This document shows, piece by piece, positions 3,911 to 32,111 of a stretch of 64,000 bases of DNA (within the stretch, counting starts at the first letter, position 1; each line of letters begins with the position of its first letter). Position numbers and translations under genes: made by a program. Source of the DNA: Candidatus Kaiserbacteria bacterium (GTDB taxonomy: Bacteria; Patescibacteriota; Minisyncoccia; Phycocordibacterales; UBA918); assembly GCA_016204695.1 (NCBI GenBank), contig JACQKD010000014.1, positions 88,170 through 152,169 on the forward strand, in the 5' to 3' direction. The notes under the pieces are model-generated. The model made no database searches. It was not told the origin of the DNA and saw nothing but the letters and a program-made list of their open reading frames with translations.

Positions 3911-4034
3911 TACGCGACCCCCACTACCGACTTTTTTCAATATAACACTTCTCCTTCGGGAAGAAGGGAGATGTGCGTTCGGGTGCTTTTTGCGGCCGAT
4001 ACATTTGCTATACTGAAGTCAAACAACTATTCGT

Positions 4035-5096
4035 ATGGCCAACAGCCGCACCGTTGAATATGTTTTCTTTTTCGGGATTCTCGGCCTGGCGGCGTATGTC
4101 ATGTGGCAGATTGTCGAACCGTTTTTCGGATCGCTTGCGGTCGCGGCAATCATCGCCACTGTCGGGTATCCGTTTTACCGGAGGATTCTTGTCCTGATGC
4201 CTCGGCAGAACAGGGGTCTTGCGGCGCTTGCCACGACACTTCTTATCGGCCTGCTGGTCGTAGTGCCGCTTGCCGTACTTGCGTACCTCATCTTCGAACA
4301 GACGTTTTCCCTCTATACGTTTCTAAGCCACGACGGCGCGACGACGGTCAACCAGTCGATTTCCCACATAGAGTCCTTGGTGCACGGCGTCGTGCCATCG
4401 TTTACATTCGATGCGGGAACCTATGCGAGACAGGCGACCGAATGGCTCGCCACGCATATCGGCGCCATTTTCGCCGCCACGACCTCAACGGTCTTTTTCA
4501 TCTTCATCGCAACGGTCGCCGTCTTCTATTTCTTTCGCGACGGCGAGCAGTGTATCGCCTACATAACCGAGATCAGCCCGCTTCCCAAAGAGGAGAATGC
4601 GCATATCTTCAAGGCACTTGCTCGCTCAATGCGCTCTGTGGTGCTCGGCACCCTCGCGGTCGCCATCATACAAGGCGTCCTGACCGCCATCGGGTTTGCG
4701 ATCTTCGGCATCAGTACTCCGGTCCTCTGGGGAGCGGTAGCGGCAGTCGGTTCGTTGATACCGGGAGTCGGCACCCTTATCGTATTCGTGCCGGCCGTCG
4801 TCTATTTCGCCCTGCAAGGCTCGTACGGCGCGATGTTGGGACTCGTTATTTGGGGAAGTGTGGCGGTGGGTATGATCGACAATCTGCTCGGGCCATATCT
4901 CATGAGCCGCGGCGCGGCGCTCCACCCACTCCTGGTGCTCCTCACGGTCCTCGGCGGTATCGCGGTATTCGGACCCATGGGCTTTATCCTCGGACCGGTG
5001 ACATTGAGCCTGCTTGCGGTGTTGCTTGAGCTTCACGCCGCACGTGCAAAATCAGGCCTTCCGACCGAACATCCTTCGGTTTCTTATGATGGATAA
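4035..5096 (+). CDS. AI-2E family transporter (PerM/UPF0118-like permease)
   Basis: Eight or more TM helices; conserved VAIIQGVLTAIGFAIFGISTPVLWG...LIPGVG region typical of AI-2E family. Confidence 0.8.
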   Translation: MANSRTVEYVFFFGILGLAAYVMWQIVEPFFGSLAVAAIIATVGYPFYRRILVLMPRQNRGLAALATTLLIGLLVVVPLAVLAYLIFEQTFSLYTFLSHDGATTVNQSISHIESLVHGVVPSFTFDAGTYARQATEWLATHIGAIFAATTSTVFFIFIATVAVFYFFRDGEQCIAYITEISPLPKEENAHIFKALARSMRSVVLGTLAVAIIQGVLTAIGFAIFGISTPVLWGAVAAVGSLIPGVGTLIVFVPAVVYFALQGSYGAMLGLVIWGSVAVGMIDNLLGPYLMSRGAALHPLLVLLTVLGGIAVFGPMGFILGPVTLSLLAVLLELHAARAKSGLPTEHPSVSYDG

Positions 5097-9927: not shown

Positions 9928-11967
9928 ATGAGCGGGTTTAAACTCTCTACAAACTACACCCCCGCGGGGGACCAGCCGAAGGCGATTGAGTCGCTTATAA
10001 AAGGCGTCAAGCGCGGCGACCGACACCAGACGCTTCTTGGTGTCACCGGCTCCGGCAAGACGTTCACGGCGGCAAACGTCATCGCGGCCATACAGAAGCC
10101 GACGCTCGTCATCGCACACAACAAGACGCTCGCGGCACAGCTCGCGCAGGAGTACGCGGACTTCTTTCCCGAAAACGACGTGCATTATTTCGTCTCGTAC
10201 TACGACTACTACCAACCCGAGGCGTACATGCCCATTTCGGACACATACATCGAGAAGGAGGCGATGATCAACGAGGAGATCGACCGCCTCCGCCACGCTT
10301 CGACGCAGGCACTTCTCTCGCGAAGCGATGTCATCATCGTCGCATCCGTCTCGTGCATTTACGGCCTCGGCTCGCCGATAGAATATGAAAAAGTGCACAA
10401 GCGCATCGAAGTCGGTACGGTCATCACGCGGCGCGACATGGTGCGCGCGCTCGTGGCATTGTATTTTGAACGTACCAACGCCGACCTTGCGCCCGGCCAC
10501 TTCCGCGCACTCGGCAACACCATAGAAATAATGCCGACAAACGAGCGCGTTATCTACCGGCTCTCCTTCAGCGGAGACGCCGTGGGAAAGATAGAACGCA
10601 TCGACGCGGTCACACGGACAATCATCGCGGAAGTGCCGACATTTTTCCTCTTTCCCGCAAAACATTTCGTGACACCCGAGCTGGAACGCAAGCGCGCCAT
10701 CGCCGACATTACACTCGAGCTCAAAGACCAGCTCGCAAAATTTGAAAAAGAAGGGAAGATTCTCGAAGCCGAGCGCATCAAGCGGCGCACCCAGCACGAC
10801 CTTGCGCTCATACGCGAAATCGGCTATTGCAACGGCATTGAAAACTACTCCCGCCATTTCGACGGCCGCAAGCCGGGGGAAGCGCCGTACACCCTCCTTT
10901 CATACTTCCCGCACAAGCCGGACGGCATGCCGGACTTTTTGACCATTATCGACGAGTCGCACGTCACCATCCCCCAGCTCGGCGGCATGTACGCGGGCGA
11001 CCGCTCGCGCAAGGACACGCTCGTCGAGCACGGATTCCGCCTGCCGAGCGCCGTGGATAACCGGCCGCTGACGTTTGACGAGTTTGAGGAGCGCGTCGGC
11101 GAAACCATCTACACCTCCGCGACGCCCGGCACCTACGAACACGAGCACAGCACGCAAGTCGTCGAGCAGATCATCCGTCCGACCGGACTTGTGGACCCGG
11201 AAATTATTGTGCGTCCGATTGTGAGTCAAGAAGAAAATCAAGGAAAAAATACTGAAGCGTACCCCGGACAAGTACGAGATTTCATCGCTGAAACAGAAAA
11301 GGTAGTAAAAGGCGGCGGCCGCGTGCTCGTCACCACGCTCACGAAAAAAATGGCCGAAGACCTCTCCGAATTCCTCAAGGAGCAAAGCGTGCAAGCCGAA
11401 TACATCCATAGCGAAATCAAGACGCTTGAACGCATCGAAATACTCACCAACTTTCGCAGAGGGAAGTTCGACGTGCTCGTCGGAGTCAACCTGCTCCGAG
11501 AAGGACTCGACCTTCCCGAAGTCGAGCTTGTCGCCATACTCGATGCGGACAAAGAGGGTTTCTTGCGTTCAGAAACATCGCTCATCCAGACCATCGGCCG
11601 CGCCGCACGCAATGTCAACGGCCGCGTCATACTCTACGCCGACGGGATGACCGGCTCGCTTGAAAAAGCCATCGGCGAGACCAACCGTCGCCGCGCCATT
11701 CAAATCGCATACAACACCGAGCACGGCATCACCCCGGCCACCATCAAGAAAGAAATCAAAGACATCACCGAACAGCTCCGTACCGTCCATGAGGAGACCG
11801 TAGACACACTCCTTTCCATCGACCGCGACCTCTACAAGAAGAACCCCAAGAAACTCATCCGCGAAAAGAACCGCCAAATGGCGGAAGCCGTCAAACTCCT
11901 CGACTTCGAAACCGCCGCCATCCTCCGCGACGAGATCAGAGCGCTGGAGGACAGAGGAGGTAGATAG
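9928..11967 (+). CDS. uvrB: Excinuclease ABC subunit B
   Basis: LLGVTGSGKTFTAANVIA (Walker A), YFVSYYDYYQPEAY, helicase motifs, C-terminal UVR domain LDFETAAILRDEIRALE. Confidence 0.95.
   Translation: MSGFKLSTNYTPAGDQPKAIESLIKGVKRGDRHQTLLGVTGSGKTFTAANVIAAIQKPTLVIAHNKTLAAQLAQEYADFFPENDVHYFVSYYDYYQPEAYMPISDTYIEKEAMINEEIDRLRHASTQALLSRSDVIIVASVSCIYGLGSPIEYEKVHKRIEVGTVITRRDMVRALVALYFERTNADLAPGHFRALGNTIEIMPTNERVIYRLSFSGDAVGKIERIDAVTRTIIAEVPTFFLFPAKHFVTPELERKRAIADITLELKDQLAKFEKEGKILEAERIKRRTQHDLALIREIGYCNGIENYSRHFDGRKPGEAPYTLLSYFPHKPDGMPDFLTIIDESHVTIPQLGGMYAGDRSRKDTLVEHGFRLPSAVDNRPLTFDEFEERVGETIYTSATPGTYEHEHSTQVVEQIIRPTGLVDPEIIVRPIVSQEENQGKNTEAYPGQVRDFIAETEKVVKGGGRVLVTTLTKKMAEDLSEFLKEQSVQAEYIHSEIKTLERIEILTNFRRGKFDVLVGVNLLREGLDLPEVELVAILDADKEGFLRSETSLIQTIGRAARNVNGRVILYADGMTGSLEKAIGETNRRRAIQIAYNTEHGITPATIKKEIKDITEQLRTVHEETVDTLLSIDRDLYKKNPKKLIREKNRQMAEAVKLLDFETAAILRDEIRALEDRGGR
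11896..11952 (+). repeat. Direct repeat A (native 3' end of uvrB)
   Basis: CTCGACTTCGAAACCGCCGCCATC... is repeated at 12919-12976 (first 24 nt identical, remainder ~75% identical and AT-richer). Confidence 0.7.
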
Positions 11968-21272: not shown

Positions 21273-21292
21273 CATACGGTGTAGGATGTAGG

Positions 21293-23015
21293 GGTATCCG
21301 CTTAAGGCGGGACAATTGGGTGTCGGTCATGTACGCTGAAGGACTGAATTCCACCACGAGTTCAGTCACCCTTCAGAGGACCGACCGACATGAAATTTTG
21401 GGCCAAAAGTCTTCGCATTGTCAACGCTTTTTGTGACAACGCCGCGCAGAGCATCCGACACGTGGCGCATCAGACCGGGTTCTCCAAGAGCAGTGTGCAT
21501 CGCCTCAAACAGGCGATGGAACGCCGAGACCGCCACCCAGAGTCGTGGTTGTGGGAAACGGAAGAAGGCCACCGTTGGCTCCTCCGTCTGGTGGTCGCCG
21601 CCCTTTTTACGTTCGGTCTCACACGCGGTGTCGGGGCGGAAACCCTCAGCGAGTTTTTTGGCCGTCTGCGCCTCGAGGCACATATCGGGTCTTCGCCCAG
21701 CGCCTTGCGGAGGATGATGGAGGCGTTGGAGGCCGTGCTTCTGGAGACGGCAGGAACATGGGAGCACGAGGGGGTAGCTGCCGGAGAGATCAGACCAATC
21801 ATCGGCGCGGTGGACGAAACCTTCTTGGAACGCATGATGCTGGTGTTCATGGACCTTGCCAGTGGCTACTTGGTGGCTGAAGAGGTTGCCGCGGATCGGA
21901 GTTATGACACCTGGTACGCTGTGGTCACGGCACGCCTGGCGACGCTGGGGGTTGGTGTGAGGTACATGGTGAGTGACCGGGCCAAGGCACTGATCAAACT
22001 GGCGGACACGGGGCTGGCGTGCTTGAGCGTCCCGGACTTCTTCCACCTTCTCCATGACCTGACCAAGAGCTATTCGCTGGCCATTGTCAGTCGGCTGAGG
22101 CACGCGCAGCAGGCCTTGCAGCACGCGCAGGAGCGTCTTGCCGCGTGCCAAGAGGCTCATCCAGACGGTGCGGACGTGCAACACGTGCACGCCTTGGTGG
22201 AGGTGCATGAAGCGGAAGTCCAGCGCTGGCAAAACGTGCACAGTGACTACCGGCACCACCTCGAGCACCTGTCGCTCATCATGCATCCATGGCGCTTAGG
22301 AGGCTCGACACCCCAGACGTCACACGAAGTGGAAGACCTCTTACAGACAGAGATCGCGGCCCTGGAAACCTTGGTCGCAACGCAGGGGGTGCCCATCAAG
22401 AAGCACGCCTTGGAGAAGGTCCGCAAGCAGCTCGCGGGCGTCGCCGCCCTGGTGGACGTGTGGTGGCAGGAGGTGTGGCACGATGTGCAGTCTCAGGTTG
22501 CCCTGACGTCGCAGTGGCGGGGCTGGGTTGCAGAGTGTGTGCTGCCGCTCATGTATTGGCAGGAACAACTGGCGCGCACGCGTTGCCCACGACGCAAAGC
22601 CAAGCTCTTCGAGGCGTTGCAGACGGTTGAGGAGGCCATGGAAACGCATCCCCTCACCCGCCAGTTGGCCCCCGAGGTCCTGGCGGGGTGGAAAGTCTGG
22701 GCGGCCGAGCATGCCAGAGGCTTTCAGCGGGCCTCCTCGGCGGTTGAAGGGCGCAACGGTGCGCTGCCGCAGTTGCACCACAACCAGCGCGGCTTGCCCA
22801 AACGCCGCTACAAGGTGTGGACGGTGTTGCACAACTTCGACTGTCGTGCCGCGGACGGGAGCACGCCCGCCTCACGGTTTTTCCGGCACGAATTTCCGGA
22901 CCTCTTTGAGACGGTGCTCTCAAAAATCGATGACGTACCACGATCTCGTCAACGCCACCAGGCTCTGGCGATAAGTATTTGAAGCTATAGAATGTCCCGC
23001 TTTAAGCGGATACCC
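21293..23015 (+). mobile_element. Insertion sequence, ISL3-family-like (1.72 kb, single transposase, 22-bp terminal inverted repeats, 9-bp target-site duplication GGATGTAGG)
   Basis: IR-L GGTATCCGCTTAAGGCGGGACA (21293-21314) matches the reverse complement of IR-R (22993-23015) with one mismatch. Flanking direct repeat GGATGTAGG at 21284-21292 and 23016-23024. GC content is higher than surrounding DNA. Confidence 0.75.
21390..22982 (+). CDS. DDE transposase (ISL3-like)
   Basis: N-terminal HTH; catalytic-region signatures AVDETF...MDL, MVSDRAKAL...VPDFFHLLHDL (DrFHv-like) and AVEGRNGALPQLHHNQRGL (EGxN...RG). Confidence 0.7.
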   Translation: MKFWAKSLRIVNAFCDNAAQSIRHVAHQTGFSKSSVHRLKQAMERRDRHPESWLWETEEGHRWLLRLVVAALFTFGLTRGVGAETLSEFFGRLRLEAHIGSSPSALRRMMEALEAVLLETAGTWEHEGVAAGEIRPIIGAVDETFLERMMLVFMDLASGYLVAEEVAADRSYDTWYAVVTARLATLGVGVRYMVSDRAKALIKLADTGLACLSVPDFFHLLHDLTKSYSLAIVSRLRHAQQALQHAQERLAACQEAHPDGADVQHVHALVEVHEAEVQRWQNVHSDYRHHLEHLSLIMHPWRLGGSTPQTSHEVEDLLQTEIAALETLVATQGVPIKKHALEKVRKQLAGVAALVDVWWQEVWHDVQSQVALTSQWRGWVAECVLPLMYWQEQLARTRCPRRKAKLFEALQTVEEAMETHPLTRQLAPEVLAGWKVWAAEHARGFQRASSAVEGRNGALPQLHHNQRGLPKRRYKVWTVLHNFDCRAADGSTPASRFFRHEFPDLFETVLSKIDDVPRSRQRHQALAISI

Positions 23016-23036
23016 GGATGTAGGATGGTGTAGGTT
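23016..23036 (+). repeat. 24-bp (TGTAGG)x3-type site, copy 1 (split by the IS; other half at 21277-21292)
   Basis: Reconstituted pre-insertion site GGTGTAGGATGTAGGATGGTGTAGG. Related copies at 23770-23791 and 25417-25442. Confidence 0.6.
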
Positions 23037-23054
23037 TTTTGCTTTATATGGCTA

Positions 23055-23267: not shown

Positions 23268-23312
23268 ATTGCGGGAGAGAAATAAGAGGCAGAGCAGGGA
23301 GAAAATGAAAGA

Positions 23313-23347
23313 GAGAAGCCGTCAGAATAAATCTCTGACGGCTTCTC
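23313..23347 (+). terminator. Terminator hairpin (14-bp stem, T-rich tail)
   Basis: GAGAAGCCGTCAGA / ATAAATC / TCTGACGGCTTCTC then TCTTTTCTC. Core GCCGTCAGA..TCTGACGGC is shared with the hairpin at 24963-24993. Confidence 0.6.
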
Positions 23348-23489
23348 TCTTTTCTCATGCTATAATCCGTTCAATTTGTACCTTCTAAACTGACGGGGAG
23401 AAAGTCCGGTGCCCTTTTTGATCTTCAGGGAGCTACGTCACTTTCCTCCCCCTCCATAGCCACCAACACTTGGTAGCTACGGCGGGGGC

Positions 23490-23705
23490 GTGAGTAAGGT
23501 CGACCGCTTCCCGAATTATCAACAAAAGTTCCGAATGTGTATGAGTATAAATAAAACTACTACTCAAACCGGGCAAAAAGCTCCTATTTCTGGTCAATAT
23601 CGGCCAGTTGGTACGCGCGACGAAATCACCCTCTCGAAGGGGGATCGTGTTCCACCGTACCAGAAGGAAGCCAAGAAGTTTGTTCTGGTTGATAAAACCA
23701 AATAG
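23490..23705 (+). CDS. YjzC-like small protein (hypothetical)
   Basis: GQKAPISGQYRPVGTRDEITLSKGDRVPP resembles the YjzC family pattern. Start may be the internal Met at 23544. Confidence 0.4.
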   Translation: MSKVDRFPNYQQKFRMCMSINKTTTQTGQKAPISGQYRPVGTRDEITLSKGDRVPPYQKEAKKFVLVDKTK

Positions 23706-23769
23706 CTTCTGACGCCCAGAATCCCCGTCAGTTTCGAGAGTACAACTCTTATTTTCTATAAGGCTCAGT

Positions 23770-23791
23770 GGGGATGTAGGTCGGTGTAGAC
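23770..23791 (+). repeat. 24-bp (TGTAGG)x3-type site, copy 2
   Basis: GGGGATGTAGGTCGGTGTAGAC lies 16 nt upstream of the SIR2-like ORF. Confidence 0.55.
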
Positions 23792-23806
23792 TTATACAAG
23801 TTCGTA

Positions 23807-24862
23807 TTGTTAAAAATTGGAAATCTGAATGAGGGTATGTCGAATCCACTTATAATTTTCGGAGCAGGCGCGTCCTTTGACTATTCTGCGTTTGGTAACA
23901 TCGCTCCACTTACTAATGATCTCGTCTCAGAACGTTTTCTTCATCACGATCTTTTAGAAAAATATCAAGGTGCCAACGATCTGTTATCTGATATGGTGCA
24001 CCAGGTCCATACACGTAATCGCGCATTTGAGACCGTCTTGAGCGAGATGAGAGAACGTGCGGCCCATTCTCCGCAACTTCTCAGTCAATTCGCAGCACTT
24101 GAATTTTATTTAAAAGCTCTTTTCAAGCGGATCTCAACTCCCTCGGACCTAACAAGAAGAGCGTATCAGGTAAACAATTATCGGATTATAAATAATCGTA
24201 TACATGCGTACTCTGGTGGTAGAGCAAATATTATATCTTTTAATTACGACACTCTCTTTGAGCATACTCTTGGTGCAAAAGCGCCAAAAAACATGCTGGA
24301 ATATATTTCTGGTGATATTAAAATCTTCAAACTGCATGGTTCCCACGACTGGCTTCATATACAACCAAGATCGCTAATGGGGGGTGATCCAAAGACAGAA
24401 GCAGAGGATATTGACTGGTACTTGGGTCGTCCAGATTTTATTGAGAATATTAGAGCTAGAAATGACACAAGTCCTTACCATGAACTAGAGCTCCACGAAC
24501 GTCCGAATAGAAATCGATATGCTTGGTTTCCAGCGATCGCTGTCCCTTTAAATAGTAAAGACAGATATGTTTGTCCTCCGAGGCATATCCAAGCGCTCGA
24601 ACAGGTACTGCCAAAGATCGATCGGGTTCTTATTATTGGTTGGAAAGCAGGAGATCAGCTTCTTCTTGAAATGCTTTCAAGACACTTGCCTAACTTCGGC
24701 TACAAGTTGCTTGTGATCTCAGGAACTGTAGATGGTGCGCAAAAGGTTGCCGAAGTTGTTCGAGATAAACTTACTGCCCATGCAGGAAAAATTGAGGCAC
24801 GTGGCGGTGGATTCTCAGATTTCGTAGGTAGCGATATAAGTCATAGCTTTTTTGCCGATTGA
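23807..24862 (+). CDS. SIR2-like (SIR2_2/DHS-like NAD-binding) domain protein, standalone; candidate anti-phage NADase
   Basis: IIFGAGASFD (GAGxS nucleotide-binding loop), ISFNYDTLFE, KLHGSHDW. AT-rich gene in a mobile island; track ORF starts at TTG 23807, first ATG at 23837. Confidence 0.7.
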   Translation: MLKIGNLNEGMSNPLIIFGAGASFDYSAFGNIAPLTNDLVSERFLHHDLLEKYQGANDLLSDMVHQVHTRNRAFETVLSEMRERAAHSPQLLSQFAALEFYLKALFKRISTPSDLTRRAYQVNNYRIINNRIHAYSGGRANIISFNYDTLFEHTLGAKAPKNMLEYISGDIKIFKLHGSHDWLHIQPRSLMGGDPKTEAEDIDWYLGRPDFIENIRARNDTSPYHELELHERPNRNRYAWFPAIAVPLNSKDRYVCPPRHIQALEQVLPKIDRVLIIGWKAGDQLLLEMLSRHLPNFGYKLLVISGTVDGAQKVAEVVRDKLTAHAGKIEARGGGFSDFVGSDISHSFFAD

Positions 24863-24962
24863 TTTATCATTACCAGGAGACACTTGACGACCTTGTATGC
24901 TTTGGTACTATATAGATACAAGTGGCTTCGGCCTCACCCCCGCAAGGGGGAGAAAATGCAGG

Positions 24963-24993
24963 AAAGCCGTCAGAACAAGTTTCTGACGGCTTT
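24963..24993. terminator. Bidirectional hairpin between convergent SIR2-like and MazF-like genes
   Basis: AAAGCCGTCAGAA / CAAGT / TTCTGACGGCTTT overlaps the last codons of the minus-strand toxin. A GC hairpin CCCCC GCAA GGGGG sits at 24934-24953. Confidence 0.5.
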
Positions 24994-25353
24994 TCTCAAT
25001 TCTGCGAATATTTCCTTGTCGAGAAAACCGACCTTTTCGACCAAACGCCGCGTATCGATCACTCGAAGTTGTGAGAGGAGCGCTTTCGCCTCCTTGTCTT
25101 GAACTATCCCCACAGAGATACGGAGTCGATGGGGATGCGGAGAGGTGGTTAGCGGGATAACCGCACAGGTTTCTGCTCCAAACGAGCGTATGATCACCAC
25201 CGGCCGAAGAAATGATTTACCGCTCCCGTCCTGTTCCGATCCGACATTCACGCCGAGTCGACACCACCATATTTCGCGAACCGTATAGAGACGAGATTCT
25301 TCACCATGGGTCTGCTTTTTCAGCGTATTCCACGTATCGAAATCTTTTGTCAT
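24970..25353 (-). CDS. MazF/PemK-family endoribonuclease toxin (type II TA), no adjacent canonical antitoxin
   Basis: REIWWCRLGVNVGSEQDGSGKSFLRPVVIIR...CAVIPLTTSPHP...IDTRRLVEKVGFLDKEIFAELRKAV aligns motif-for-motif with the MazF/NdoA family (GSEQxG, RPxxVI, xPxTT, IDxxRL). Confidence 0.75.
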   Translation of the reverse strand: MTKDFDTWNTLKKQTHGEESRLYTVREIWWCRLGVNVGSEQDGSGKSFLRPVVIIRSFGAETCAVIPLTTSPHPHRLRISVGIVQDKEAKALLSQLRVIDTRRLVEKVGFLDKEIFAELRKAVRNLF

Positions 25354-25402
25354 GAAGTTAGGGAAATCATAGCATGGACATTTTATGATGGTATGATGAG
25401 TC

Positions 25403-25549
25403 TTATCGAGAGGGGAGTGTAGGGTGTAGGTTGGTGTAGGACTTTTTCTCTAACAGCTTCTGGACGGGTGCCAGAAAATCCTTGTTTTCCGCCACAGCGG
25501 TTCGAACGTCGTCCAATAAGGCCCACAACTGTAGAAAATCCCGTCTCAT
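25403..25549 (-). CDS. Possible 48-aa ORF upstream of the MazF-like toxin (speculative antitoxin candidate; overlaps repeat site 3)
   Basis: ATG at the centre of the 42-nt palindrome encodes MRRDFLQLWALLDDVRTAVAENKDFLAPVQKLLEKKSYTNLHPTLPSR; ends 49 nt before the toxin start. Confidence 0.2.
   Translation of the reverse strand: MRRDFLQLWALLDDVRTAVAENKDFLAPVQKLLEKKSYTNLHPTLPSR
25417..25442 (+). repeat. 24-bp (TGTAGG)x3-type site, copy 3
   Basis: GTGTAGGGTGTAGGTTGGTGTAGGAC. Confidence 0.55.
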
Positions 25550-25570
25550 ATGAGACGGGATTTTCTACAG
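25529..25570. promoter_or_regulatory. Perfect 42-nt palindrome (21-nt arms, no spacer); operator or bidirectional terminator candidate
   Basis: CTGTAGAAAATCCCGTCTCATA|TGAGACGGGATTTTCTACAG. Confidence 0.5.
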
Positions 25571-25697
25571 TTGAAGGGGAGTTCGGAACGGACTCGAAGC
25601 TGTTGCGAGCTAGACTATGAGCGAAGCGAAATAGTATAGCCGCAACGGAGGAGTCGATTACCGCACCCGGGACAGGTCTGTTAAAATGGCAACCTGT

Positions 25698-26690
25698 ATG
25701 AAACTTCTGATTGTGACACATCTTGAGACGAGCAAGAAACCTGCTCCGCACACACCGGGATTGCGTACGCTTACCCGCGTGCAGGTGAAAAAGATCAAGG
25801 CGGTCGCGCCGAAGATGGAGATAATCGTGACCGGAGAGCCGGACGAAATCGAGCGGCATGCCGCCGATGCGAACATCATCGTGACGTCTCCGCGGACGCT
25901 CCCGCCGCTTGCACATGCAACACATCTCACATGGCTTCACTCGCTCTCGGCGGGCGTGGACCGCATCCTGACACCCGAGGTCAAGAAGTCATCGGTCATC
26001 GTCTCAAATTCTTCCGGCGTGCATGCGGTCCCGATTGCAGAGCATGTCATGGCATACCTGCTCATTTTCGCGCGCGGTTTTTTACATTCGCTTGAAAATC
26101 AAAAGCATCGTCTCTGGAAACGGGGCGAAGGCATGACCGAGCTGTATGAGAAGACCGTACTCATCGTCGGCATGGGGAATATCGGGAGCGAAGTCGCGAG
26201 ACGCGCGCATGCATTCGACTGTCATATCATCGCGCTCACGCGAAGCGGAAAGACCGACTCAAAATACGTTCACGAGATACACAAAGCATCGGCGCTTGAG
26301 CGCATGCTGAAGAAAGCCGATTTTGTTGTGAGTTGTCTGCCCGGCACACCGGAGACGCATCACATCTTTGACCGCAAAAAATTCGGCCTTATGAAGCCGA
26401 GCGCGTACTTCATCAACATCGGCCGCGGTTCGCTCGTGCATGAAAAAGACCTCATCGCCGCGCTCAAGAAAAAGCTCATCGCGGGCGCCGCGCTCGATGT
26501 CGCCGAGACCGAGCCGCTTCCCGCAGAAAGCCCGCTCTGGAACATGCAAAATGTCATCATCACTCCACACCATTCCGGCGCCTCCGAACGATACATGGAC
26601 CGCGCCATCGACCGCTTCGTGCTCAATCTCAAAGCATACCTGCGGAAGAAACCCCTCCCGAATCTCGTAGACAAAACCTTGGGGTACTGA
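25698..26690 (+). CDS. D-isomer-specific 2-hydroxyacid dehydrogenase (NAD-binding)
   Basis: GMGNIGSEVARRA (GxGxxG), INIGRGSLV, ALDVAETEP, ITPHHSG. Confidence 0.8.
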   Translation: MKLLIVTHLETSKKPAPHTPGLRTLTRVQVKKIKAVAPKMEIIVTGEPDEIERHAADANIIVTSPRTLPPLAHATHLTWLHSLSAGVDRILTPEVKKSSVIVSNSSGVHAVPIAEHVMAYLLIFARGFLHSLENQKHRLWKRGEGMTELYEKTVLIVGMGNIGSEVARRAHAFDCHIIALTRSGKTDSKYVHEIHKASALERMLKKADFVVSCLPGTPETHHIFDRKKFGLMKPSAYFINIGRGSLVHEKDLIAALKKKLIAGAALDVAETEPLPAESPLWNMQNVIITPHHSGASERYMDRAIDRFVLNLKAYLRKKPLPNLVDKTLGY

Positions 26691-30388: not shown

Positions 30389-32111
30389 CGCCGTGGCTAC
30401 GATGGCGTCCCTCGCCATCTCCGCCATCCTCATCACCGCCGCATACGCACAATCACCCGACGATATCATCTATCCCATCGGAGCGTTGGGGAATTGCGAG
30501 AGCAAAGAGGCGTGTCGGGCATATTGCGACATCGCCGAACATCATGCGGCATGCCAAGCATTTGCTGAAAAACATAATCTTGATGACGAGTCGGGCGACA
30601 AATTCGATATGGCGGTGAAAGACGGCGGACCGGGCGGATGTGCCGCAGGCGCCGCCGACCCGCGCGATGCGTGCCGGCAGTATTGCGATTCCATGGATCA
30701 CATGCGGGAATGTGTCGCATATGCGGAGTCGCACGATCTGATGGACGAAACGGAGCTTGCGGAAGCCCACCGCGTCATTGCCGCACTTGACCGGGGCGCG
30801 ACGCTTCCGCCCGGTTGCACCAATGAGGAGCGCTGTCACGAGCTTTGCGAAGCGCCCCCGGATGTGGCAACTGCGCGGCAGTGTTTCGCGTTTGCCGAAG
30901 CCGCCGGACTCCTGCCTCCGGACGTTGATCGGGAAAAGGCGGAGATGATGTTCAAGGCGATCGAAGAGGGCAGAGCGCCGTTTAAGACACCCAAGGAATT
31001 CGAACAATGCGAAAATCCGTCGAGCGACGAAATCATGCAAAAGTGCATCGACTTCGGCCTTGAGAACGGCTTTCTTTCGGACGAAGAAGCGGAAATGGTG
31101 AAGAAGACCGGCGGCAAAGGGCCGGGCGGCTGTCGCGGCAAAGAGCAGTGCGAGGCGTACTGCAGTACGCACCAAGACGAGTGTTTTGCATTCGGCGTCG
31201 AGCACGGCATGATCAAGCCGGAGGATAGGGAAATGATGAAGGAGGGTATCCATCGTTTCAAAGAGGGTTTCGCAAAGGCTCCGCCGGAAGTGAAAGAATG
31301 TCTTGAGGAAAGCCTGGGCGCGGACACGCTTGATCAGATGCTCTCCGGAGCGACTATGCCGACCGAAGAACTCGGACAAAAAATGCGTGCGTGTTTCGAA
31401 AACCATTTCGGGGAAGAGGGCGGCATGATGGAAGGAGAGGGCGCAAAGGGCGGCATGTCCGGCAAGCAATTCCCTCCCGAAGTGAAAGCGTGCCTCGAAT
31501 CAAAAATCGGCGCGGAAGGAGTGAAAAAAATGCTTGAAGATGGTCCCGATCCGTCACTCGAAAGCGCGATGAAAGGATGCTTCCAAGGAATGATGCAGAA
31601 CAAACAGGGAGAAGAAAGGTACGACGATAAGGAAGCATCATCACAGGGATTCCAAGGAGAATTCAAGGGTCCCGGCGGATGCACCGATCCCGAAGAGTGT
31701 AAGCGCTACTGCGCCGAACATCCGGAAGCATGCGGTATGAAGCGCGATGCGACAGGTTTTCCGGCCGGCGCCAATCCGGAAGAAATAGAACAGATGATGC
31801 GCGAAAAGATGATGCAGGAAGGCCGCGAGCAATATATGCAAGAGAATGAGGGACAGTTTCCCGGAGAAATGAACCCTGAAGACAGGGAACGAATGATGGA
31901 AGAAAAATATGAAGAGATGGAACGAGACGACAATATGTCCGAGAACTTCCACGAGGAAAATGAAGATCCGGGAACATACGACAGGCCGGCGGAAGAGCCG
32001 CAAGAACACACCGAACCGTCCGAACCGGCACCGACAAGTCGTCTCCCGCAAATCGGCGGAAGCAGTCTGATCGCGAACGTCGTCTCGATCCTGCTCGCCT
32101 TGCTGTGGTAA
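30369..32111 (+). CDS. Secreted cysteine-rich repeat protein with acidic C-terminal region and terminal hydrophobic anchor
   Basis: Signal peptide MASLAISAILITAAYAQ; about seven repeats of the form G(G/N)C-x4-C-x2-YC-x6-C-x2-FA-x3-(H/G)GL; C-terminus LPQIGGSSLIANVVSILLALLW. Confidence 0.6.
   Translation: MKTRLNSAVATMASLAISAILITAAYAQSPDDIIYPIGALGNCESKEACRAYCDIAEHHAACQAFAEKHNLDDESGDKFDMAVKDGGPGGCAAGAADPRDACRQYCDSMDHMRECVAYAESHDLMDETELAEAHRVIAALDRGATLPPGCTNEERCHELCEAPPDVATARQCFAFAEAAGLLPPDVDREKAEMMFKAIEEGRAPFKTPKEFEQCENPSSDEIMQKCIDFGLENGFLSDEEAEMVKKTGGKGPGGCRGKEQCEAYCSTHQDECFAFGVEHGMIKPEDREMMKEGIHRFKEGFAKAPPEVKECLEESLGADTLDQMLSGATMPTEELGQKMRACFENHFGEEGGMMEGEGAKGGMSGKQFPPEVKACLESKIGAEGVKKMLEDGPDPSLESAMKGCFQGMMQNKQGEERYDDKEASSQGFQGEFKGPGGCTDPEECKRYCAEHPEACGMKRDATGFPAGANPEEIEQMMREKMMQEGREQYMQENEGQFPGEMNPEDRERMMEEKYEEMERDDNMSENFHEENEDPGTYDRPAEEPQEHTEPSEPAPTSRLPQIGGSSLIANVVSILLALLW

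Follow-up and report, generated by a model that had tools for sequence, protein, structure and literature searches.

How is a toxin of the MazF/PemK family held in check when no antitoxin gene stands before it? The question is raised by a locus in a Candidatus Kaiserbacteria genome, of which we analysed a stretch of 64,000 nucleotides, here called the window (assembly GCA_016204695.1, contig JACQKD010000014.1, positions 88,170 to 152,169; positions below count from the first letter of the window). The toxin gene is found on the minus strand at 24970–25353 and encodes a protein of 127 aa, which is on record from a Candidatus Kaiserbacteria contig. A first-pass annotation had taken this toxin for an orphan, with a 48-aa open reading frame (ORF) upstream as its possible partner. 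Our analysis confirms that observation in part, while the proposed partner is wrong and the feature of interest is located on the other side of the toxin gene. A small RNA gene, complete on the opposite strand, converges on the 3' end of the toxin gene and is a candidate RNA antitoxin; this conserved gene had been overlooked. As judged from the sequence comparisons that follow, the convergent small RNA paired with this MazF-family toxin is probably an RNA antitoxin.

The convergent small RNA gene

The window was compared with 80 related loci, most of them from bacteria of the candidate phyla radiation (CPR), fetched from species-representative genomes. In all 81 loci the RNA core is found right after the stop codon of the toxin gene on the opposite strand, and the description of the toxin as an orphan is not borne out. 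The element first surfaced as an odd downstream 'protein' cluster ('..LPLAGARPKPTV') and proved to be a conserved DNA element. Alignment A2, which holds it from all 81 loci, and the covariance model R1, which was built from the small RNA, support an RNA of ~83 nt on the plus strand at ~24918–25000. It is composed of a 5' ACAAGU, two hairpins named P1 and P2, a linker beginning AGAA and a terminator. From near A24918 the RNA in the window reads ACAAGU-GGC[UUCG]GCC-UCA-CCCCC[GCAA]GGGGG-AGAAAAUGCAG.

A promoter scan predicts a sigma-70-type promoter for this RNA at 24884–24911 on the plus strand, with the -35 box TTGACG at 24884–24889, a 16-nt spacer and the TG-extended -10 box TACTAT at 24906–24911. 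A promoter-like pair of TTGAC[TA] and TAnnnT, 16–18 nt apart, is present in all 81 loci, and in 69 of these the -10 box ends 11–12 nt ahead of the core. On the same strand follow hairpin P1 at 24924–24933 (GGC-UUCG-GCC), with a UUCG loop in 77 of the 81 loci, and hairpin P2 at 24937–24950 (CCCCC-GCAA-GGGGG), with a GNRA loop in 69. The terminator scan places the last hairpin at 24961–24995; it is shared by the two genes and has a U tract on both strands. Read on the small RNA strand of the window, its stem of 15 bp is followed by UUUUCU. This hairpin overlaps the last eight codons of the toxin gene and the stop codon (24970–24972), and the final ~35 nt of the toxin mRNA, with this codon among them, match it in perfect complementarity.

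The three-hairpin structure is well supported by covariation. In alignment A2, 94.9% of the cells are paired, while slid controls reach a pairing of only 39–63%. Compensatory changes are observed in 16 of the 23 pairs and comprise 140 cells, a level reached by none of 500 shuffles. In particular, 12 of the 15 terminator pairs show compensatory change, and three pairs of P2 change from C-G to U-A. The minimum free energy (MFE) of the small RNA in the window is -41.6 kcal/mol (z=-6.6). A search of Rfam 15 with 24700–25800 of the window gave no relevant match at E<=10, including to the pemK RNA motif; at gathering scores only tRNAs were returned, and eight related loci gave no match at E<=0.1. 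With its covariation support, the element of ~80 nt defines an RNA family that is new with respect to Rfam 15. A coding role of the small RNA was considered and rejected, as its AUG at 24956 is not conserved in the 81-locus alignment.

Complementary hairpins fold on either strand, and we asked which strand carries the RNA function. On the strand that does not encode the toxin, 119 G-U pairs are counted and 39 A-C mismatches. The tetraloops also belong to this strand, since a stable tetraloop class is seen in P2 in only one of the 81 loci when the toxin strand is read. The RNA strand has the lower MFE in 70 of the 81 loci (mean difference 5.9 kcal/mol, p=5e-13), and at least six U within the 10 nt after the stem are found on it in 69 loci, compared with 48 on the toxin strand. 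All four measures, which are independent, assign the RNA function to the non-toxin strand.

The 5' domain of the RNA, which does not overlap the toxin coding sequence, has a pairwise identity of 84.5% (90% around P1). The third codon positions of the toxin gene are saturated at 38.9%, and the 5' domain, unpaired bases included, is conserved like the second codon positions. Because this domain is located outside the coding sequence and is yet conserved far above the third codon positions, selection on the RNA sequence itself is strong.

RNA and toxin gene occur together well beyond the aligned copies. The covariance model finds one copy per family toxin with 73–114 bits, with lower scores for copies beside paralogues. 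Such matches are found at paralogous N-extended MazF genes of the same loci (L003, L006, L020, L040, L044 and L045). Distant paralogues missed by the model keep a convergent promoter, the 5' GGC-UUCG-GCC hairpin and a second GC-rich hairpin; the loop of the 5' hairpin is AUUC instead of UUCG in the paralogue of L024. In the reverse direction, metagenome contigs were scanned with the RNA core alone, and a toxin gene converges on it in 102 of the 110 matches with enough flanking sequence. The remaining eight are truncated or toxin-deleted remnants.

Among these remnants, three identical loci (L099, at 10023–10130, L148 and L188) keep the promoter, the whole RNA and ~10 terminal codons of the toxin gene, and in five others (L087, L145, L176, L178 and L180) the 5' domain of the RNA alone is left and the toxin is gone. 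A frameshifted toxin gene beside an intact RNA is found in L080 and in the second copy of L040. The latter locus belongs to the chromosome of Bradyrhizobium sp. DASA03120 (NZ_CP182469), a complete alphaproteobacterial isolate genome, which holds the module twice near 678–679 kb, at 2212–2327 and 4001–4437 of the locus as fetched; one copy is intact, with a toxin 66% identical to that of the window, and the other has kept its RNA. The finding points to horizontal transfer out of the bacteria of the candidate phyla radiation (CPR). Thus, among the loci examined, the toxin is never without the RNA, while the RNA is at times without the toxin, an asymmetry expected of a toxin and its antidote. In four loci (L048, L052, L065 and L068) the toxin stop codon has been lost and the protein is 147–148 aa long, with a tail '..SDGFS..LPLAGARPKPTV' that runs antisense across the RNA core. 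The paralogues in L045 and L079 likewise have a longer ORF over the RNA core, ending in '..EAEAV' or '..EAEANV'. In all six, both transcripts would overlap fully.

Nucleotide similarity to every other locus is limited to 24883–25374, and this includes L001, whose toxin is 91% identical. By this comparison the ~490 bp form a self-contained two-gene module.

The toxin and its family

The toxin is a genuine member of the MazF/PemK family by sequence and fold, which upholds the earlier MazF/NdoA-like assignment. Its sole Pfam match is PF02452 PemK_toxin, covering residues 26–127 with E=1.7e-15 and 57.6 bits, where the cut-off is 23.1 bits. A profile of 30 relatives searched against solved structures recovered B. 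subtilis MazF/EndoA (E=6e-6). The AlphaFold2 model is of moderate confidence (pLDDT 71), and in a Foldseek comparison with the PDB all 50 of the 50 matches listed are MazF-family toxins, one of them a MoxT homologue, with E of ~1e-5 and TM of 0.5–0.63. No match to the ToxN/AbiQ/CptN/TenpN family was found in Pfam, no ToxN is among the Foldseek matches listed, and a PADLOC scan returned no match for the toxin.

The catalytic residues, to which the first-pass annotation had tied the fate of its proposal, are intact. Arg50 (in 'LRP') and Thr69 (in 'PLTT') are invariant in an alignment of 30 toxin relatives and correspond to Arg25 and Thr48 of B. subtilis MazF. The Thr column aligns in the profile alignment, while the Arg positions correspond only if a gap of four residues, placed by eye, is allowed. 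Because the catalytic residues are invariant, the toxin looks active. Throughout the family, an N-terminal extension of 25 aa with the motif MxKDFDxWNxxKK is conserved; classical MazF is without it.

More than 800 homologues with 65–91% identity, mostly of 127 aa, come from Patescibacteria (CPR bacteria). A profile search of 1.84 billion cluster representatives (50% identity clusters) at E<=1e-10 gave at least 1385 clusters, mainly from CPR bacteria, and most of the cluster matches listed span the full toxin length including the N-terminal extension. Distant homologues with 28–38% identity and the same N-terminal motif are carried by the Campylobacter jejuni plasmid pVir, by CJIE4 prophages and by plasmids of Helicobacter and, in one case, Nitratiruptor. 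The Nitratiruptor plasmid (L202, NZ_AP023062) has the closest plasmid homologue, at 38% identity. After its toxin gene, and in the same orientation, comes a 62-aa ORF at 1655–1843 (TIRVEDDLWDKFKKIA...), which appears ribbon-helix-helix-like by eye; in this branch a protein antitoxin may be encoded downstream.

Expression signals of the toxin gene are read from the sequence. A TG-extended -10 box, TGcTATGAT, is located at 25366–25374 on the minus strand, 12 nt before the ATG, and a Shine-Dalgarno motif is absent upstream of this ATG. Of 37 good -10 boxes in relatives, 27 end 6–13 nt ahead of the toxin start codon, most commonly 7 nt, and a Shine-Dalgarno-like motif at the toxin start is seen in 3 of 61. 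The toxin gene is thus probably transcribed as a monocistronic mRNA that is predicted to be leaderless or near-leaderless. Such an mRNA would exclude a co-transcribed upstream antitoxin, and would equally exclude control by pairing at a ribosome-binding site.

The first-pass annotation was right that no MazE-like ORF precedes the toxin gene on its strand in the window. No upstream partner ORF is common to the 80 related loci, in which the upstream ORFs differ from locus to locus. When all ORFs within 1.5 kb on either side of the toxin gene were clustered across these loci, only the overlapping frames of the toxin gene itself and paralogous toxins were shared. The absence of an upstream partner of the MazE/PemI type therefore holds for the whole family. 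In this respect the module departs from MazEF/PemIK (Kid-Kis), with which it shares the PF02452 sequence and fold and the positions of the catalytic Arg and Thr. MazEF/PemIK has a co-transcribed upstream protein antitoxin, of which there is none in the 81 loci. Here the toxin is N-extended, monocistronic and near-leaderless by prediction, and its partner is a downstream RNA gene on the opposite strand. The feature that defines type II systems, an adjacent and co-transcribed protein antitoxin, is absent.

Modes of action and competing explanations

Taken together, the conservation and the layout make it likely that the small RNA serves as the antitoxin, by one mechanism or another. That the locus is a toxin–antitoxin module in which the convergent RNA of ~83 nt takes the place of a MazE protein is the reading we favour, with reserve. 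For the main mode of action, an antisense mechanism similar to type I is our tentative choice, falling just short of an even prospect. In this scheme the toxin gene, with a promoter of its own, would yield a monocistronic mRNA with little or no leader. The small RNA would pair with the 3' end of this mRNA, as in the pairs RatA/txpA, SR4/bsrG and RNA II/fst, the complementary terminator hairpins of the two RNAs making the first contact. The duplex would then be cut by RNase III, or the ribosome would be blocked at the stop codon, and toxin synthesis would stay low. With transcription shut off, e.g. by phage attack or because the element is lost, decay of the RNA would allow the RNase to be produced. 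Such pairing does not account for the strongly conserved 5' domain (P1, P2 and the linkers), which may act as a stabiliser of the RNA or as a direct binder of the toxin.

In type I systems with 3' overlap, pairing leads to RNase III cleavage or to a translation block. A convergent toxin mRNA and small RNA with overlapping 3' ends, as found here, are present in txpA/RatA, bsrG/SR4 and bsrE/SR5 of B. subtilis and in par (fst RNA I/RNA II) of E. faecalis pAD1 (PMC8167048). In par the terminator is shared and works in both directions, as is predicted for the present module. The type I architecture of a cis antisense RNA overlapping the toxin mRNA is predicted in 81 of the 81 loci. The toxins differ. 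Those of txpA, bsrG, bsrE and fst are membrane peptides of less than 60 aa, whereas here the toxin is a soluble RNase-fold protein of 127 aa. The module also differs in its near-invariant 5' domain outside the overlap, for which a second pairing site in the mRNA, of the kind present in par, was not found. A small hydrophobic peptide, typical of type I toxins, is thus lacking, and it is not obligatory, given SymE and RalR. In SymE/SymR and RalR/RalA of E. coli an enzyme toxin is under the control of a small RNA (PMC8167048, PMC4041452). Their folds are unrelated to that of the window toxin, SymE being AbrB-like and RalR a DNase. In the first of these systems the RNA, SymR, covers the 5' end of its target; in the second, RalA is a trans-acting RNA that works with Hfq.

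A probable precedent is located on the C. jejuni plasmid pVir. Shen et al. 2016 reportedly described a CjrA/CjpT pair on this plasmid and called CjpT a 'proteic' toxin. The pVir homologue of the window toxin (WP_011117588, pVir 30634–31038; 30% identity, E=5e-10) has the same FDxWNxxKK N-terminus. It is the sole annotated toxin of a toxin–antitoxin system on the plasmid and has no partner coding sequence. A promoter-like site converges on its 3' end, and hairpins are present there. At the matching place model R1 gives a weak match (E=0.28), and the CPR RNA is not detectably similar. In papers that cite Shen et al. (PMC10470494, PMC7826846), CjrA is given as an antisense RNA that serves as the antitoxin in a type I system carried by pVir. 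For the homologue in the CJIE4 prophage, the authors noted that there is no MazE (PMC3995785). If CjpT is the PemK homologue of pVir, there is one experimental precedent, and the CPR family would be a new and much broader variant of it. In the literature searched, which covered neither Shen et al. 2016 itself nor the Weinberg et al. 2017 supplement on the pemK RNA motif, no description was found of a CPR MazF-family toxin with a convergent small RNA.

Several points weigh against the favoured reading. The promoters, the transcript ends and the toxicity are predictions. A toxin mRNA ending at the shared terminator would overlap the small RNA only in the hairpin, over ~35 nt. For the near-invariant 5' domain, RNAduplex found no second pairing site in the toxin mRNA (z=+0.3 relative to shuffles, with scattered positions). 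Control at the level of translation would leave leaked enzyme toxin unneutralised, which favours direct binding. On Campylobacterota loci, model R1 gives no significant match (E 0.13–0.28). Furthermore, the identity of CjpT with the pVir PemK homologue is our presumption.

Direct binding of the toxin protein by the RNA, as in type III systems, is a serious alternative, because the 5' domain is without a target and antisense pairing supplies no inhibitor at the protein level. As the main or an additional mode we consider it doubtful. Its strict form would have the small RNA bind the finished toxin, with the 3' overlap being just a shared terminator, and is unlikely. In that form the invariant 5' domain would sit in the RNA groove of the MazF dimer, either uncleavable or retained after processing. 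Such a mode is favoured by the known binding of single-stranded RNA to MazF proteins and by the fold of ToxN, the classic type III toxin, which is related to that of MazF. The 5' domain is conserved as second codon positions are although it is outside the toxin coding sequence, its UUCG hairpin is kept even beside distant paralogues, and no trans pairing target was found for it by RNAduplex. An enzyme toxin, moreover, needs an inhibitor at the protein level. In ToxIN, CptIN and TenpIN, an endoribonuclease toxin of related fold is held by a structured RNA that binds the protein, and a similar arrangement would account for the 5' domain. However, type III antitoxins are tandem repeats located upstream on the same strand and processed by the toxin, whereas here a single-copy RNA is found downstream in convergent orientation. 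Neither the architectural features nor the toxin family of type III are present. In addition, PMC10470494 assigns the system on pVir, the probable precedent, to type I.

The two modes could also be combined on one MazF fold, as a hybrid of types I and III, which we regard as rather unlikely. The 5' domain (ACA..U with the UUCG and GNRA hairpins) would dock on the MazF dimer and block its active site, perhaps with help of the N-terminal extension, and the 3' hairpin would act as antisense to the toxin mRNA. Such a hybrid would extend over more than 1000 protein clusters, mostly from CPR bacteria.

If there were no antisense RNA at all, the element would be the structured 3' untranslated region and terminator of the toxin mRNA, or a C-terminal extension of the protein in some loci. 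The hairpins do form on the toxin strand as well (MFE of -37.2 kcal/mol in the window, z=-4.4), and the ORFs of L048, L052, L065 and L068 and of the L045 and L079 paralogues read through the element. This explanation is improbable. It is opposed by the promoter on the other strand, at a fixed distance in 69 of the 81 loci, by the ratio of 3:1 between G-U pairs and A-C mismatches and by UUCG and GNRA loops that exist on the opposite strand only. That strand folds more stably in 70 of the 81 loci and has the better U tract, and solo copies retain promoter and terminator without a toxin gene.

A protein antitoxin acting in trans, of the MazE/PemI type or another, or a domesticated RNase that needs no antitoxin, is a further explanation that we hold to be quite improbable. 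In its favour, the view of the genome is 64 kb, and the 62-aa ORF after the Nitratiruptor homologue suggests that some branches may have protein partners. Yet the 490-bp unit moves to unrelated contexts, including the Bradyrhizobium chromosome, and a partner in trans would be left behind. A tblastn search of the window with MazE/PemI-like queries gave matches at chance level and none of significance, a weak test with approximate query sequences. The conserved RNA gene would also be left unexplained.

The weakest candidate is the 48-aa ORF at 25403–25549 on the minus strand, which is present as first described and is the sole upstream ORF on the toxin strand, and which is very improbable as a non-canonical small protein antitoxin: it has no homologue among 5.8 billion proteins or, by tblastn, in a wider set of 200 related loci, matches nothing in Pfam, NCBIfam or PADLOC, is located outside the conserved block 24883–25374 and upstream of the -10 box of the toxin gene, and is absent even from L001. 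Its ends are a copy of a direct repeat at the 3' part, with GTGTAGG three times as part of the 20–31-nt repeat, and a palindrome arm at the ATG side. By these comparisons it is a chance ORF and not part of the module, in agreement with the alternative of a coincidental ORF that had been offered alongside.

For the RNA antitoxin reading, the consequences go beyond this locus. MazF and PemK are textbook type II toxins, and a solitary mazF is usually dismissed as an orphan or an annotation gap. Many genes that carry the annotation 'type II toxin, no antitoxin' would gain their missing partner in the small RNA. The distinction between types I, II and III would weaken, with one toxin fold under protein control in one lineage and under RNA control in another. 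The cassette of 490 bp is compact and easily tested, and the Bradyrhizobium isolate that carries it should be culturable.

Surroundings of the module

The module is embedded in a stretch of lower G+C (0.42–0.49, compared with 0.53–0.6 in the flanks) beside a tRNA-Ala gene. The same stretch holds an insertion sequence, a SIR2-like gene and two small ORFs, with GTGTAGG-rich repeat copies between them. Convergence of the toxin gene on a SIR2 gene had been called unusual in the first-pass annotation. A SIR2-like gene does adjoin the module, but the match is weak (Pfam SIR2_2 E=0.005, below the cut-off; PADLOC SIR2 E=2.6e-5). A functional link between the two was rejected: in none of the other loci is this gene kept beside the module, and since each locus has different neighbours, the SIR2-like gene is, on comparison, incidental. 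Its ORF ends 22 nt before the -35 box of the small RNA (24862–24884) and has no terminator of its own, and its transcript may run through the small RNA gene to the shared terminator.

Upstream of the toxin promoter and outside the module, a perfect palindrome is found at 25526–25573, unique in the window. It does contain the ATG of the 48-aa ORF, as the last triplet of its left arm, but its length is 48 nt (24+24, no spacer) and not the 42 nt first given. The core CCCGUCUC-AUAU-GAGACGGG followed by AUUUUCU is terminator-like on both strands, and no annotated gene runs into it. Rfam gave only spurious miRNA-like matches for the palindrome. A Logan contig from an independent assembly (SRR12113383) carries the neighbouring dehydrogenase gene and ends inside the palindrome, which may be a real two-way terminator, an island junction or an assembly effect.

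The direct repeat GG(A/G)TGTAGG..GGTGTAG(G/A), of 20–31 nt, occurs in the same orientation at 23016–23046, 23772–23802 and 25422–25452, and GTGTAGG is observed eight times in the window where 2.8 are expected. The repeat copies border two cassettes, one with a DUF5678 ORF and a YjzC-like ORF and the other with the SIR2-like gene, the small RNA and the toxin. They could serve a small island beside the tRNA gene as sites of recombination.

A partial 3' half of the RNA is found on the plus strand at 23297–23355, with GGGAGAAAAUG and a terminator hairpin, 84–85% identical to 24948–25003. It gives 31 bits with model R1, is without P1, P2 and toxin, and may be a remnant of another module.

The insertion sequence at 21284–23024 follows just after tRNA-Ala(tgc) and has a G+C of 0.62, above that of its surroundings. 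Its 530-aa ORF (21390–22982) has helix-turn-helix and DUF6399 domains. Terminal inverted repeats of 23 nt (21292–21314 and 22993–23015) are 96% complementary, and a 9-bp direct repeat, GGATGTAGG, flanks the element and is probably a target-site duplication. A further inverted repeat of 24 nt, 88% complementary and with its arms 322 nt apart (23376–23399 and 23722–23745), brackets the YjzC-like ORF at 23490–23705.

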